Of a stretch of DNA of 64,000 bases, positions 10,224 to 39,895 are shown piece after piece. The position numbers were made by a program, and so were the translations under genes. Origin of the DNA: an uncultured Gemmatimonadaceae bacterium (GTDB lineage: Bacteria > Gemmatimonadota > Gemmatimonadetes > Gemmatimonadales > Gemmatimonadaceae); contig CAVVTZ010000009.1 in the NCBI GenBank assembly GCA_963751275.1, positions 256,001 through 320,000 of the forward strand. Direction: 5' to 3'. Numbering within the stretch: position 1 is the stretch's first letter; each line of letters opens with the position of its first letter. The notes beneath the pieces were generated by a model, which saw only the letters and a program-made list of their open reading frames with translations, was not told the DNA's origin and did not search any database.

Positions 10224-10408
10224 GTTGCAGCTAACAGCAAACAGTCACGAGAACCGCACGGCAGGCTACAGTCAACAGTCAACAGGTCACAGAAATCAGA
10301 TCAGGAATGGGCGACTTACATCGCCCGTTCGTGATCCGTTTTCTGTGAGCTGTTGACTGTTGACTGTAGACTGGCAGTCACTCGTGACTGTTTGCTGTTA
10401 GCTGCAGC
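10224..10408. repeat. Long palindromic element, family A copy 1
   Basis: gttgcagctaacagcaaacagtcacgag..cagtcaacagtcaacaggtcacaga / tctgtgagctgttgactgttgactg..ctcgtgactgtttgctgttagctgc. Confidence 0.95.
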
Positions 10409-12310: not shown

Positions 12311-12492
12311 GTTGCAGCTAACAGCCAACAGTCACGAGTACCTGCCAGTCTACAGTCAACAGTCAACAGCTCACAGAGAACGGATCACGAATGCGCGATG
12401 TACATCGCGCGCTCGTGGTCTGCTTTCTGTGACCTGTTGACTGTTGACTGTTGACTGGCCGTCACTCGTGACTGTTGGCTGTTAGCTGCAAG
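12311..12492. repeat. Family A palindrome copy 2
   Basis: Same ~70-bp arms as copy 1, with a self-complementary core. Confidence 0.95.
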
Positions 12493-13158: not shown

Positions 13159-13343
13159 GTTGCAGCTAACAGCAAACAGTCACGAGTGACTGCCAGTCTA
13201 CAGTCAACAGTCAACAGGTCACAGAAGACGGATCACGAGCGCGCGAAGTGCGTCGCGCATTCGTGATCCGTTTTCTGTGACCTGTTGACTGTTGACTGTT
13301 GACTGCCGCGCCGTTCTCGTGACTGTTTGCTGTTAGCTGCAAC
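13159..13343. repeat. Family A palindrome copy 3
   Basis: Same arms as copies 1 and 2. Confidence 0.95.
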
Positions 13344-15400: not shown

Positions 15401-15583
15401 GTCGCAGTAAACAGCAAACAGTCACAAGTGACCGCCAGTCTACAGTCAACAGTCAACAGCTCACAGAGAACTGACTGCGGACGGGCGAAAACATCAATGC
15501 CCCCGCGGATCCGTTCTCTGTGAGCTGTTGACTGTTGACTGTAGACTGGCAGGTACTCGTGACTGTTTGCTGTCTACCGCAGC
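15401..15583. repeat. Family A palindrome copy 4
   Basis: Same arms with a divergent core. Confidence 0.95.
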
Positions 15584-18197: not shown

Positions 18198-18388
18198 GGG
18201 AAGATTGCAGTAAACAGCAAACAGTCACGAGTACCTGCCAGTCTACAGTCAACAGTCAACAGCTCACAGAAAACGATCCAGCGCGCAGGAGAACCTACTG
18301 CGCAGGGGCCTGCCTTCTGTGAGCTGTTGACTGTTGACTGTAGACTGGCGGTCACTCGTGACTGTTTGCTGTTTACTGCAACCTTCCC
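18198..18388. repeat. Family A palindrome copy 5
   Basis: Same arms; lies between the divergent permeases. Confidence 0.95.
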
Positions 18389-20940: not shown

Positions 20941-21149
20941 CACCAGACCGGTAAGGTTGCAGCTAACAGCGAACAGTCACGAGTGACCGCCAGTCTACAG
21001 TCAACAGTCAACAGCTCACAGAAAACGATCCAACGCGACGGAGATACTATTGCGCACGGGCCGGATTTCTGTGAGCTGTCGACTGTTGACTGTAGACTGG
21101 CAGGTACTCGTGACTGTTGGCTGTTTACTGCAATCTTCCCGGTCTGGTG
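20941..21149. repeat. Family A palindrome copy 6 (with extended outer arms)
   Basis: caccagaccgg..gttgcagctaacagc ... gctgtttactgcaatcttcccggtctggtg. Confidence 0.95.
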
Positions 21150-21706: not shown

Positions 21707-21885
21707 ATTGCAGCTAACAGCAAACAGTCACGAGTACCCGCCAGTCTACAGTCAACAGTCAACAGCTCACAGAAAGAAATTCAGCGCGACCGATAGATGG
21801 TTGCGCATGGGCCAGATTTCTGTGAGCTGTTGACTGTTGACTGTAGACTGGCGGTAACTCGTGACTGTTTGCTGTTAGCTGCAAC
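21707..21885. repeat. Family A palindrome copy 7
   Basis: Same arms. Confidence 0.95.
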
Positions 21886-27807: not shown

Positions 27808-29052
27808 TCAACCGAGCGCGGCGGTGCGCCGGTTGCGTCGCACGGCCTTGCCGGTGAGGCGAACGTTCTGCCGCTCCGCCGCGTGGCGGAGGCAGGCCTG
27901 GATGAGCTGGTCGTAATTCATGCCCGCCGCGCGCGCCGCCTTGGGGAAGCAGGAATTATCGCGCGGGTCCGGCAGGATGCCGGGGAGGGGATTCACTTCG
28001 ACGACGTTCGGCGTGCCATCGGCGTCGAGCCGGATGTCGATGCGCGACCAATCGCGGCAGCCGAGCACGAAGTAGGCGGCGAGGGCCACCTGTTCGATGC
28101 GGGACTGCAGCGCGCTATCGATTTGCGCGGGGCACTCGAAGATCTCGAGCGGATTCTCCGGGCGGTCCCAGAGCCACTTGGCCTCGAAGCCGTAGACGGG
28201 CAGCGCGCCCTCGGGGAGAGCGGCGAAATTCATGCCGACGATGGGCAGGACGCGCGCGCCCGAGCCATTGCCGAGCACGGCGCAGGTGAACTCGGCGCCG
28301 GGGAGCCATTCTTCGACGAGCACGGGCTGTTGATAGTGCTCGAGCAGGAAGAGCGTCTGTTCCGCGAGCTCAGCGGGGGTGCGGCAGAAATTCCTTTCCG
28401 TGATGCCCTTGGAAGAACCTTCGTGCACGGGCTTCACGAAAAGCGGCAGACGGAGCCGGCCATTGACGCCGCGCAGGCGCCGCGTGGTGACGCGCTCGAG
28501 CAGCGCCGTCACTTCATGCGCGGCCCGCACGAGGACAAAAGGGGCGGTGGGGACGCGGTTGTAGGCGAGATATTCTTTCGTGCGCGCCTTATCGAGTCCC
28601 ATCGCGAGCGTGAAGGGATCGGAGCCGGAGTAGGGAATGCCGTAGAATTCGCAGATCGCGGGCACGTGGGCCTCGCGATTCGCGCCATTCATCCCTTCGG
28701 CGATGTTGAAGACGATATCGGGGTTGGCGACGCGGAGTTTCTCGGGGAATTCTGCCGTGGCCTCGAGCCTGATGACTTCACCCACACCTTCCAGCGCGCG
28801 CTCGACCGCATCGATCGTCTCCGCGCAATCCCACTCGGCGTATTTATCGTTGACCGTGCTGAGGTGGTGGGCGGCGACTTCGGGAGTCGAGAATTGCGAG
28901 TCGGGGAGGGACTCGGCGACTCGCGAGCGGCGCGACCATTTGCGGCGGCGGCTTGAGATCTCTTCGGCGGGACGCGGGGAGTCGGCGTCGGCTGAGAGGC
29001 GAAGAGATGCGGAGTCGGGTTTTTGATTGTAGGCGAAGCCTATTCGACTCAT
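27808..29052 (-). CDS. D-Ala-D-Ala ligase-like ATP-grasp protein 1
   Basis: FNIAEG..REA, PYSGSD, VKPVHEGSSKGI, RDWSRIDIR, EVNPLPG. Confidence 0.9.
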   Translation of the reverse strand: MSRIGFAYNQKPDSASLRLSADADSPRPAEEISSRRRKWSRRSRVAESLPDSQFSTPEVAAHHLSTVNDKYAEWDCAETIDAVERALEGVGEVIRLEATAEFPEKLRVANPDIVFNIAEGMNGANREAHVPAICEFYGIPYSGSDPFTLAMGLDKARTKEYLAYNRVPTAPFVLVRAAHEVTALLERVTTRRLRGVNGRLRLPLFVKPVHEGSSKGITERNFCRTPAELAEQTLFLLEHYQQPVLVEEWLPGAEFTCAVLGNGSGARVLPIVGMNFAALPEGALPVYGFEAKWLWDRPENPLEIFECPAQIDSALQSRIEQVALAAYFVLGCRDWSRIDIRLDADGTPNVVEVNPLPGILPDPRDNSCFPKAARAAGMNYDQLIQACLRHAAERQNVRLTGKAVRRNRRTAALG

Positions 29053-29177
29053 CTGCTCCGGGGGAACGAGCTGAACTGCTCGTGAGATGTTCACGGGAGT
29101 AAGATAGGGTTAAAGGTTTTCTAGTGCAATGATTTTTTTGAGATACTTTTTGGCGACGACGACACTGCTTACTGCAT

Positions 29178-29845
29178 CACTTGCGCATCCGTGACATGAA
29201 GTCAACAGTCAACAGTGATCCAGTCGAACTGCAGTCGACAGTCATCGGTCGACAGCTCATCAGAAAACGGTGAGGTGTGCGTTCATGTGATGATGACGAA
29301 TGAATGGCGCCGAAGTAGCGTGGGGCATGTCGATCAGAAGTCATCGAGACCTCATCGTGTGGCAGCGTTCCATGGAGTACGCGGCGGAGGTGCATCGCAT
29401 GACGAAGCGTATTTCCGCCACGAGAGGGCGCTGACTTGCGGAAGCAACTCCTCCGTGCGGCGATGTCCGTGCTCAGCGAATATCGCGGAGGGCGCAGGTC
29501 GCATGCACCGTGGCGACTACCTGCGATTCATTTCGATCGCGCGCGGCTCCTTGCTCGAGTCCGACTCTCATGTCGCGATGGCGGTCACCTTCGGCTACCT
29601 GCGCGAAGAGGACGTGAGACGCGGGGAGCAATTGAGCGGCGACATCCTCCGTATGCTCACCAAGCTCGCGAGCGTACTCGCGCGCCAATCCCACGCTCGC
29701 CTCCCGACAATGTGAACAAGGGCAGGAGCCACTGCGCCTCCCGCCCTCATGGAGCCGATTCTCTGATGACTGTTGACCGATGACTGTCGACTGCAGTGTA
29801 CTGGATCACTGTTGACTGATGACTTCATGCTTGGTCGTGCAAGTG
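29178..29845. mobile_element. Putative element: four-helix-bundle gene between ~75-bp inverted arms (family D, filled)
   Basis: Left arm 29195-29270 and right arm 29755-29829 are reverse complements; outer cacttgc/gcaagtg pair; empty homolog at 39722-39895. Confidence 0.7.
29327..29715 (+). CDS. Four-helix-bundle protein (TIGR02436 / 23S rRNA IVP / bAvd-like fold); 2 apparent frameshifts
   Basis: MSIRSHRDLIVWQRSM..FP..E..LRKQLLRAAMSV..ANIAEGAGR....DYLRFISIARGSLLE. Confidence 0.88.
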
Positions 29846-29872
29846 CCGAACTCGGGGGATCGCCGTTCGCCG

Positions 29873-30625
29873 TTAGACCTTGTGATAGAGGATCCGTGCC
29901 GCCTCACGACGGTCCTCGGCTTGATACACCTCGAAATCCCCAAAAAACCCCGGCGCGATTCCCTGGAGCACGCGCAGCACCGCGATCGCACATCTCCGAA
30001 TCTCCTGCTCCGCCCCCTCACCAGATCGCAGCTCAAGCATAGTTCTCCAAGCCCGAGCATTCCCCGTCACCACGATCTTCGTCTCCGTCGCATTCGGCAA
30101 CACCGCCCTCGCCGCCTCCCGCGCCATCTTCCGCCGATGGACCTTGTCCGCGATCCATCCATACCGCTCCATCAACGCCTCGACCATCTCGATATACGCC
30201 GCCAGCGCCGACTCCATCTGCGCCTTCCACGCCGCCTCGAGCGCCGCATCCCCGATCACCGCCGGCGGGATCACGAAATTCGCGTCCGTCTCGTCCACGT
30301 AGCGCTGGGAGAGCTGTGAGTACGCGAACCCCGCCCAATGCCGCACGAGCTCGTGGGTCAAAGATCTACTCACGCCTTCGAGCAGCAAGGAGTAGTTGGC
30401 ATGCTCGAGCACCGACCCATGCCCCTGTTTCTTGATGTTCTCGAGATAATCTCGCGTCGTCCGGTTCGCCGGATTCTTCTGACTCATATAACACAACCGC
30501 CCCGCGAACTCCGCGAGGCGTTCACCGTCAGTACTCTCCCCCATCCAATGGACCGGCAGATGCGCCGGTTCTGAGAACGCCGGTTGCGACAGTACGCTGA
30601 TCACCGGCTCAGCAAAGTATTTCAT
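29873..30625 (-). CDS. thyX: FAD-dependent thymidylate synthase
   Basis: EFAGRLCYMS, GHGSVLEH, THELVRHW..SQLSQRY, EAARAVLPNA, GNARAWR. Confidence 0.93.
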   Translation of the reverse strand: MKYFAEPVISVLSQPAFSEPAHLPVHWMGESTDGERLAEFAGRLCYMSQKNPANRTTRDYLENIKKQGHGSVLEHANYSLLLEGVSRSLTHELVRHWAGFAYSQLSQRYVDETDANFVIPPAVIGDAALEAAWKAQMESALAAYIEMVEALMERYGWIADKVHRRKMAREAARAVLPNATETKIVVTGNARAWRTMLELRSGEGAEQEIRRCAIAVLRVLQGIAPGFFGDFEVYQAEDRREAARILYHKV

Positions 30626-30708
30626 GTCGTTGGATCGCCCTTCGCAGTTGGGGTAGAGCAGTCTAAAGTCTAAGTCAACGTCTAAGTCTGTAGCATTGCC
30701 GTCCGAAG

Positions 30709-32336
30709 TTAAGCAGTCTCCCCCAACGCCGACAGTCGCGACCTGCTCCACGCTCTCTCCCTCTCGATGGCATCAAGCGCGCTTCGAGCCGCCGCCGGCA
30801 GCGGCGACAGCGCCGGATCGTACTTCACCTCCCCCACCGCCACTTGTCCCGCCACCGGCACCTTCACCCCCGGATTCAATATCCCACTTGGATCGAACGC
30901 GTCCTTCACCGCCTTGAACAACGCGCGCGACTCATGATGCCACGTCCGGTCCATGAGCGGCGTGCGCAGCCGCCCGTCGCCGTGCTCGCCGCTCAAGGTC
31001 CCGCCCAACCTCTGCACCAGCTCGGTCACTTCCTCGAGCACCGCGTCGAGCGTCGCGCGCCAATCGCTCGCGCTCACGTCGATCAAGGGATTCACATGCA
31101 CATGCGCATCCCCCGCGTGCCCGAAGATCACGCCCTTCACGCCATGATCCTCCAGCACCTTCCGCACCCCGCGCACGTAGGCCACGAGCTGGTCGGGCGG
31201 CACCGCCGCGTCCTCGATGAACTGCATGCTCTTGAGACGCGGATCGAGCCGCGCGAGGATCGGGACTCGCGGCATGCCGCAGCTTCCACAGCGAGCCCTC
31301 GCTGCCCGGGTCCAGCGCGACGCGGATATTCATCGCCCCCGCTCCGCCGAACAGTCCCTCGAGTTGCCGCGCCGCCGCGATCGCCGAGGTCGCATCGCCG
31401 GCCTCTACTTCCACCAACAGCACCGCGTCGGTGCCATTGGTGATCCCGATATCGTCCCCCTCGCTCGTCGCCACCGCCAGGAACGTCGCGGTCGATCAGC
31501 TCGCACGCGCTCGCGCCGTTCGACCGCGCCCGCGCCGCCGCGTCCACCGCCTGCATGATGCTCGCGAACTCCGCCAACAACGTGCACGTCGCCGCCGGAA
31601 CGGGAACGAGCGACACCTCGACCCCCACGAACATCGCGAGCGTCCCCTCGCTGCCCACCAGGAGATCGATCAACTCGCCGCTGCGCGCATAGTCGGCCAG
31701 CGCGTAGCCCGAACTCTCCTTGCGCACGCCGGGATGCTGCCGGAACCGCCCGGGCGCCGCGAGGATGGCCGGATGCGCCGACGCCTGGAATCGCATGAGC
31801 GCGGGAATGTCCGGCGGCAACGGTGAGCCGCGCCGGATCACGGCGCGCGAGCCATCGTCGAACACGCAATCGAGCGCGGTGACCCACGCGCGCATCGCGC
31901 CGTAGCGCACCGTGTGCGCGCCGGCCGCGTTCGTCGCCGCCATGCCGCCAATGGTGCAGAACGCGCCGCTGGACGGATCCACCGGAAAGCGCAGCCCGTG
32001 CGCGCGCGCCTTCTCGTTCACCTCCGAGCGCGTCGCCCCCGGACCCGCCCACACGCGGCGCCATGTCTCGTCCACGCGCTGCACGCCGCCCAGCCGCGAG
32101 AGATCGACGATCACGCCATCGCCCACCGCGCCGCCCGCCATCCCGCTGCCGCTGCCACGCGGGATGAGCGGCATCGCGTTGGCACTCGCCCACTTCGCGA
32201 GCGCGCACACGTCGTCGGCGTCGGCCGGTACCGCCACCGCCCGGGGGATGATGCGCGCGATCCCGGCGCCCTCGGAATACACGGCGCGCGCCAATTCGTC
32301 TTCGCGAAAGATCCCGCGGAATCCCGTCGGTTGCAC
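30709..32336 (-). CDS. FAD-binding oxidoreductase (GlcD/Dld-like); frameshifts near 31490 and 31265
   Basis: PRGSGSGMAG, PVDPSS..CTIGGM, GSEGTL, FGHAGD..H, GEHGDG, FDP.GILNPG. Confidence 0.88.
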
Positions 32337-36657: not shown

Positions 36658-36702
36658 TTCAATCCGTTGCCGCGAGCGGTGGCCCCTCGTAGATTCCAAT
36701 CA

Positions 36703-38916
<2,214 letters not shown>

Positions 38917-39721: not shown

Positions 39722-39895
39722 GCATGAAGTCAGCAGTCAACAGTGAATCAGTACACTACAGTCGTGCTACAAGTCATCAGTCGCAAGTCATCAGAAAGCC
39801 GTTCTGCGCGAGGGACCGTTTGCTGATGACTGACGACCGATGACTCGTAGGACGACTGGAGTGTACTGATTCACTGTTGACTGCTGACTTGGTGC
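39722..39895. repeat. Family D palindrome, empty version of the four-helix-bundle element
   Basis: catgaagtcagcagtcaacagtgaatcagtacact..gtcatcagaaa / ctgatgac..agtgtactgattcactgttgactgctgactt. Confidence 0.9.

Follow-up and report, generated by a model that had tools for sequence, protein, structure and literature searches.

PF05635/TIGR02436 is a very large protein family for which, to our knowledge, no function is known outside diversity-generating retroelements. The origin and movement of the intervening sequences (IVSs) of rRNA have been a question since the early 1990s, and we know of no explanation for the families of heptamer-built hairpins that stand between bacterial genes. One described case of a PF05635 gene within a stem is the 23S rRNA IVS of Coxiella burnetii, where the excerpted text of the source places an S23p (PF05635) ORF, itself decaying, in a stem cut by RNase III, with tandem heptamers (GACAGAT, three times, in variable number) on the 5' side of the ORF (PMC4990558). 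In the same excerpt, a mobile origin of IVSs with the ORF as a mobility component is an old proposal that was never demonstrated (PMC4990558). PF05635 ORFs have also been reported in rRNA inserts of CPR bacteria (10.1101/2024.02.27.582315, in part), and the family has been likened to Avd (PMC10053308, in part). Among dispersed repeats, two systems invite comparison: RAYTs, which are described as single-copy and vertically inherited genes in the part of the source available (10.1101/2022.05.22.493013), and the STRR of filamentous cyanobacteria, given in a passage of PMC2670836 as 7-bp tandem repeats that form intergenic hairpins and whose function is not known. In a search with subscription journals outside its scope, no published work was found on PF05635 genes in hairpins outside rRNA, or on such genes tied to dispersed repeats.

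The locus described here, with its relatives, ties together the three puzzles of the PF05635/TIGR02436 family, the rRNA IVSs and the heptamer hairpins. It occupies positions 29178-29845 of the window, the whole stretch of 64,000 nucleotides of DNA that was analysed, and consists of a four-helix-bundle gene between long inverted arms (the cassette, E4 among those of its genome). The 5' arm (29178-29270, + strand) is made of CAGTCAA/CAGTCGA-type 7-nt units with an outer extension at 29178-29194, and pairs with the 3' arm (29755-29845, +), its reverse complement by repeat search, blastn and fold. A repeat search of the window returned two pairs of inverted blocks, 29195-29224/29800-29829 (30 nt, 97%) and 29228-29255/29770-29797 (28 nt, 96%), which blastn merges into matches of 70-73 nt at 90-91% with about seven differences; both searches agree with the sequence-only reading, which had placed a gene at 29327-29715 between near-perfect inverted arms differing at about seven positions. 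The arms are runs of such heptamers of about 75 nt each, and their pairing reaches outward to 29178/29845 in the RNA fold, where the whole 668 nt fold up into a single closing stem, about 95 pairs long (-351 kcal/mol, z -13.6). Compared flank to flank, the inverted match reaches 75.8 bits; among 400 random intervals of 400 bp taken from the genome, the highest score was 30.2 bits.

Between the arms lie a leader from arm to start codon (29271-29326, +), which has a GTGATGATGAC stretch common to the orthologues in alignment A1, the PF05635/TIGR02436 gene (29327-29715, +), spread over three frames according to profile matches and the orthologue alignment, and a short trailer from stop codon to 3' arm (29716-29754, +), delimited on the sequence and of a geometry shared by relatives. 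This order of arm, leader (about 60-110 nt), ORF, trailer (about 40 nt) and arm is constant among relatives, in which about 75-115 nt separate the 5' arm from the Pfam match and 30-55 nt separate that match from the 3' arm. GGAGG-type ribosome sites are present in the leaders of relatives, and a promoter scan of 29000-30000 found no sigma-70-like promoter. When translated, 29300-29431 corresponds to positions 1-24 of PF05635 (E 0.0034); 29473-29712, read in another frame, matches positions 44-105 with 51.6 bits (cut-off 33.8) and TIGR02436 with 51.3 bits (cut-off 24), and the family assignment first made by eye thus holds above the curated cut-offs of both models. The gene is not a single intact ORF of about 110-140 codons: in an alignment with four intact orthologues it is split by single extra bases near 29403 and near 29473, the frame being otherwise open along the corrected path 29327-29715. 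Matching public contigs span 28900-29108 and 29475-29707, so neither frame break is covered, and the broken gene is either a young pseudogene or an assembly error.

Like the ORF-bearing 23S rRNA IVSs of Coxiella burnetii and Leptospira, the cassette combines an S23p-family ORF in a long inverted-repeat stem with heptamers and a decay-prone reading frame. Unlike those IVSs, which sit at 23S helix 25 or 45, it stands between two protein genes and antisense to both, no rRNA being found by Rfam in the window or at five other cassette loci; it also differs in having families of gene-less hairpins that share its arms, and in being resident at one site across the genus. Its likeness to the Avd protein of diversity-generating retroelements is one of fold family, the intact paralogues E1 and E2 hitting the Avd model weakly (E 2e-4 to 5e-4). 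However, NF033474 gives only 20-21 bits for E1 and E2 against a cut-off of 80, no reverse transcriptase (PF00078) was found in the genome, and there is no template/variable repeat pair.

The neighbours of the cassette are a gene for a D-Ala-D-Ala-ligase-like ATP-grasp protein (Ddl-like; 27808-29094, − strand; PF07478, 121.5 bits) and thyX (29873-30751, − strand; PF02511, 189.8 bits), so that the cassette gene, on the + strand, is antisense to both. The source genome, G000 (an 83%-complete assembly), was compared with five congeners, G001-G005, the six being related, incomplete genomes (63-89% complete). Over its full length, the ddl-thyX interval of G000 can be aligned with those of G003 and G004 (82%). 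In G001 and G002 its two flanks align and enclose an intact gene, and the region is missing from the 76%-complete assembly of G005. The site is therefore occupied in four of the four congeners where the spacer was recovered (G001-G004), with no empty-site allele among them; the empty alleles expected if the locus were mobile did not materialize, and a fixed, syntenic locus was found in their place. This copy has accordingly not moved since the genus diversified. Such fixity does not separate the models, because RAYTs are also single-copy and vertically inherited. The E1, E2 and E3 cassettes of G000 are likewise syntenic and E6 is not: E6 and its G003 sister L032 belong to one protein clade and stand at different sites, which shows that whole cassettes do relocate. 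The surroundings of two orthologous genes in G001 are without long hairpins; gene order is not kept there, and they were not counted as empty sites. An apparent empty site in G000, on C9 near 69424, was rejected, as a hairpin of another family stands there.

Inverted arms turned out to be the rule around genes of this family, which bears out an earlier supposition drawn from the one locus. All seven PF05635 genes of G000 (six found by profile and one degraded copy on C2) have arms, at 46-182 bits, with 0 of 400 random intervals above 30.2 bits, and so have 21 of the 22 testable loci in the five congeners (25 loci, three with flanks too short). By the same random-interval control, two of the three GxxExxY (PF13366) genes of G000 have them as well. 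Across the phylum, with one locus per genome, 18 of 26 testable loci exceed 30.2 bits, and in named genomes of about 15 phyla arms accompany 44 of 75 testable loci, compared with 0 of 138 displaced control windows. Flank lengths varied slightly among these surveys (350, 450 and 300 nt), and the related loci in named genomes were found from a 5-sequence alignment. The seventh gene of G000 (C2:57271-58139), missed by the profile search, is a frame-broken member of the E3/E5/E6 subfamily with arms of about 120-200 nt. The GxxExxY (PD-(D/E)XK) genes between inverted heptamer arms are L008:1425-1943 (G000 C7:952020-952538) and L007:1443-1921 (G000 C7:943204-943682), the second of which shares its arm type with a 25-member family of gene-less hairpins; an unrelated small protein thus occupies the same kind of hairpin. 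A 127-codon ORF, its family unassigned, also lies between two copies of the E1-type arm (G000 C1:42648-43220). Since one of these copies belongs to an adjacent, complete hairpin, the ORF may simply be a normal gene with a hairpin on either side.

The arms themselves were found to differ between genomes at one and the same site. At ddl-thyX, arms of three unrelated repeat types occur in different genomes: counted roughly per genome and among the matches listed, the family A type that stands there in G003 and G004 has 76 and 85 matches in those two, 38 in G000, 2 in G005 and 0 in G001 and G002; the (CGACGACAGT)n arm of G001 has 31 in G001 and 0 in four other genomes; and the (TAGTCCA)n arm of G002 has 64 in G002 and 0 in four other genomes. 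The E4 arms of G000 are a diverged relative of family A, and many hairpins of G005 are close to the E4 type (up to 92% identical). A second resident site is that of E2, where the flanks of the G000 gene are also those of its G003 sister. Among the matches listed, the E2 arm core has 30 matches in G000 and 0 in the five others, and the arm core of G003 at that site has 78, 86 and 65 in G003, G004 and G005, 17 in G000 and 0 in G001 and G002. Arm type and dispersed family thus change together between genomes. That the arms switch from genome to genome while the site stays syntenic is the new element of this analysis, and it offers a testable handle, since sister genomes differ at two resident sites both in arm type and, in step with it, in the hairpin family dispersed through each of them. 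E1 and E3 retain one arm type across genomes. At the E2 site the cassette interior is moreover inverted between the arms (L002:1508-1880 versus L021:1433-1805, both flanks still collinear), which recombination between inverted arms would give.

In the protein tree there is a well-supported clade for each of four arm types, and the GGGA-type heptamers (gggaacc, gggaag, gggactc, gggaaac) group in a single clade. Gene-less hairpins with the same arms are dispersed for all arm types tested. G000 holds 357 short-loop hairpins (median 146 nt, 1.7% of bases) in many families. The larger families include those of E1, E3/E6/E7, E5 and E4; one consists of the arms that flank a GxxExxY gene, two (gggactc, gggaaac) have gene-bearing copies only in congeners, and several are without a gene-bearing copy in this 83%-complete assembly. 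None of the hairpins is matched by an Rfam family. Long hairpins number 35, 31 and 10 per 400 kb in three genomes with these genes, and 1, 4, 0 and 1 in four complete genomes without PF05635 and PF13366, a suggestive contrast that is confounded by phylogeny, as the four gene-free genomes belong to other families.

Within the window, an E4-type gene-less hairpin without assigned strand (39722-39895) was delimited by repeat search, alignment and fold. It had been taken for an empty copy of the cassette with the same arms: the element does exist and forms a single hairpin when folded as DNA (-70.9 kcal/mol, z -14.1), and its arms are only 85% identical to those of E4 over about 75 nt, so that the identity of the arms did not stand. 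It lies exactly where G003 and G004 have a family A hairpin, and is 77-81% identical to its positional orthologue with 25 of 74 pairs unchanged. The thiG-hbd gap contains 3.2-3.3 kb of other DNA in G001 and G002. No target-site duplication was seen by eye at the two elements inspected (29178/29845 and 39722/39895).

Family A is represented in the window by seven gene-less hairpins, likewise without assigned strand (10226-10406, 12312-12491, 13159-13343, 15404-15580, 18198-18388, 20941-21149 and 21708-21884), which fill, one apiece, seven successive spacers from 10.2 to 21.9 kb. Over its inner 24 nt, the left cassette arm differs from 21076-21099 at three positions, and the resemblance of the inner left arm to the family A core, put by eye at four mismatches and one indel, reappears as such in alignment A2. 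The 16 copies of the family have two highly conserved arm blocks and a variable centre, often with a smaller palindrome of its own, and are nested and modular. All seven hairpins of the window are at orthologous sites in G003, six of them recovered in G004 too; relative to G003, 437 of their 566 base pairs (77%) are unchanged, with coding flanks at 75-82% identity. With seven of seven orthologous and 77% of pairs unchanged, there is no sign of recent copying in G000. A lower stability of these hairpins was expected in G000 on account of its broken gene; they are at least as stable there (MFE per nt -0.48) as their orthologues in G003/G004 (-0.42), whose gene is intact. Of 31 long hairpins in 400 kb of G003, 24 were assigned a place in G000, where most of the spacers concerned hold a hairpin as they do in G003. 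In the window segment 10226-21884 the spacers are tandem, convergent or divergent, and the hairpins are 11-133 nt from the neighbouring ORFs. Elsewhere, one spacer after a stop codon has a family A hairpin in G003 (C1:2120416-2120595) and an unrelated family in G000 (C9 69424-69444), and at G000 C9:109832-109883 a hairpin that G003 has in full is reduced to its left half.

These features bring the cassette close to REPIN-RAYT systems, in that the gene is single-copy, passes down vertically and stands between inverted copies of a lineage-specific hairpin repeat that is dispersed in the same genome, to the extent that the available part of the RAYT literature describes such systems. With regard to repeat spread, the seven family A hairpins are all orthologous with G003, yet genome-specific families and type switches at single spacers exist. 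The arms are 30-120-nt arrays of 7-10-nt units, compared with REPs of 20-40 nt in REPIN-RAYT, and the gene encodes a small four-helix bundle, not a Y1/HUH transposase. Profiles for RAYT/IS200 (PF01797), IS110 (PF01548) and TnpB (PF07282) had no match in any of the six genus genomes (63-89% complete); a separate RAYT/IS200 or IS110 enzyme that the arms might have tracked, named beforehand as an outcome that would speak against the proposal, was thus not found there. MITEs and the Correia, ERIC and BIME elements are similarly short, gene-less hairpins dispersed in intergenic DNA. The present families differ from MITEs in having no cognate transposase among the three families tested (PF01797, PF01548, PF07282) and no target duplication by eye, and from all four in that their arms consist of tandem short units and their centres are variable and nested. 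We take one STRR unit to be CAACAGT, i.e. the family A unit in another register. The STRR resemble the present hairpins in being 7-bp repeats that form intergenic hairpins, but occur in another phylum, and the passage that describes them makes no link to a gene inside the hairpin (PMC2670836).

Taken together, the cassette may be read as an IVS-like, vertically inherited resident of the ddl-thyX site that is causally coupled, as source or partner, to the gene-less hairpins with the same arms, a reading whose chances we judge to be about even. Its protein is predicted to recognise repeat arrays. More specifically, and only tentatively, since we hold it to be rather unlikely in this full form, the Avd-like protein without a transposase fold would be the specificity factor of a repeat-propagating system, in which paralogues read their own 7-10-nt arrays and drive the copying or conversion of hairpins into intergenic spacers; the GxxExxY (PD-(D/E)XK) genes would then act as an alternative driver within hairpins of this type. 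On such a mechanism, the arms of the resident copy would drift through slippage of the short units, and new hairpins would be copied or converted from the arm type of that copy into spacers between genes, often ones that already have a hairpin, leaving older families as fixed relics. The Avd-like protein would provide sequence specificity and host replication or repair the copying itself. With the G000 gene dead or mis-assembled, the locus would be a relic partner and not an active one. The intact family A despite a broken gene, the orthologous, fixed hairpins and the families without a gene-bearing copy all weigh against ongoing copying from this copy. Of the sequence-only reading, which had seen a filled, autonomous element with empty derivatives, analogous to RAYT/REPIN and without a transposase, the arms as a rule, the dispersed hairpins with the same arms and the lack of a transposase are retained, while autonomy is not supported, the gene of this copy being broken and family A hairpins being no less stable here than where it is intact. 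Were it true that the protein reads its own arms, this would be a system, mobile or repeat-maintaining, based on a fold that does not look enzymatic. As a specificity factor, it would be a functional counterpart of RAYT/REPIN, and would explain both the ORF-bearing rRNA IVSs and the STRR-like heptamer hairpins.

The main rival explanation is that the hairpins are an independent repeat class, either selected by the host (as terminators, or as RNA-processing or insulating stems) or spread by another enzyme, and that the genes are lodgers whose arms follow by gene conversion. The matching arms could indeed stem from gene conversion among similar repeats, with the protein uninvolved. We regard this as improbable overall, though a good deal speaks for it: the 357 hairpins fall into many families, several without a gene-bearing copy; between species, family A arms (77% of pairs unchanged) are better conserved than the flanking coding sequence (75-82% identity); no spacer from 10.2 to 21.9 kb is without a family A hairpin; and the nested, modular build of the hairpins looks as though newer ones had entered old loops. 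Two unrelated kinds of small gene occupy loops; as lodgers, the four-helix-bundle and GxxExxY genes would settle in hairpin loops or survive only there. Lodging explains why hairpins are intact beside a dead gene. It does not explain the agreement between protein clades and arm types, which would not be expected from random lodging, and it fits poorly with the presence of arms on nearly every gene of the family in many phyla, with the near absence of long hairpins from the four gene-free genomes and with the failure to find RAYT, IS110 or TnpB.

It could also be that only the whole cassette moves, and that the gene-less hairpins are gutted former cassettes, the protein having no part in hairpin copying. 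Relocation of one clade between sites (E6 versus L032) is in line with this, and the broken genes (E4, E7) and the half hairpin can be read as decay. The centres of the hairpins nevertheless make it unlikely: against the cassette interior, the 16 family A centres score a mean of 17.2 bits and shuffled centres 16.7 bits, with no excess likeness, so that the hairpins are not visibly gutted cassettes, and the view that they are empty derivatives of the cassette, held at the outset, is not supported, their centres carrying no trace of the gene interior. Hundreds of hairpins, moreover, stand against 7 to 10 gene-bearing copies, and seven consecutive spacers would each have needed a former cassette.

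That the arms serve the gene alone, as a dsRNA stem cut by RNase III that controls or releases its mRNA, with only incidental likeness to the dispersed hairpins, draws on the strength of the closing stem (about 95 pairs, -351 kcal/mol, z -13.6) and on the RNase III excision of the Coxiella IVS with the same gene family described in the excerpt of PMC4990558, but is very unlikely given an 85% identity to dispersed hairpins over about 75 nt, genome-specific families that match the arms, a gene antisense to both neighbours, so that read-through would not yield sense mRNA, and the lack of wobble bias in the arms. Of the arm mismatches in 46 elements, 34 would be compatible with G-U pairing if the sense strand were the RNA and 32 if the antisense strand were, and 60 are transversions; selection on an RNA stem is unsupported by this weak test, there being no sense-strand excess (34 vs 32), and the absence of wobble bias fits DNA-level copying better.

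The window contains further hairpins of at least five other families, starting at 2787, 4232, 33233, 36348, 38493, 40831, 45560, 49611 and 57010, whose arms are made of different short units. A TPP riboswitch (RF00059, 63.6 bits) is located at 36699-36797 of the window on the + strand.
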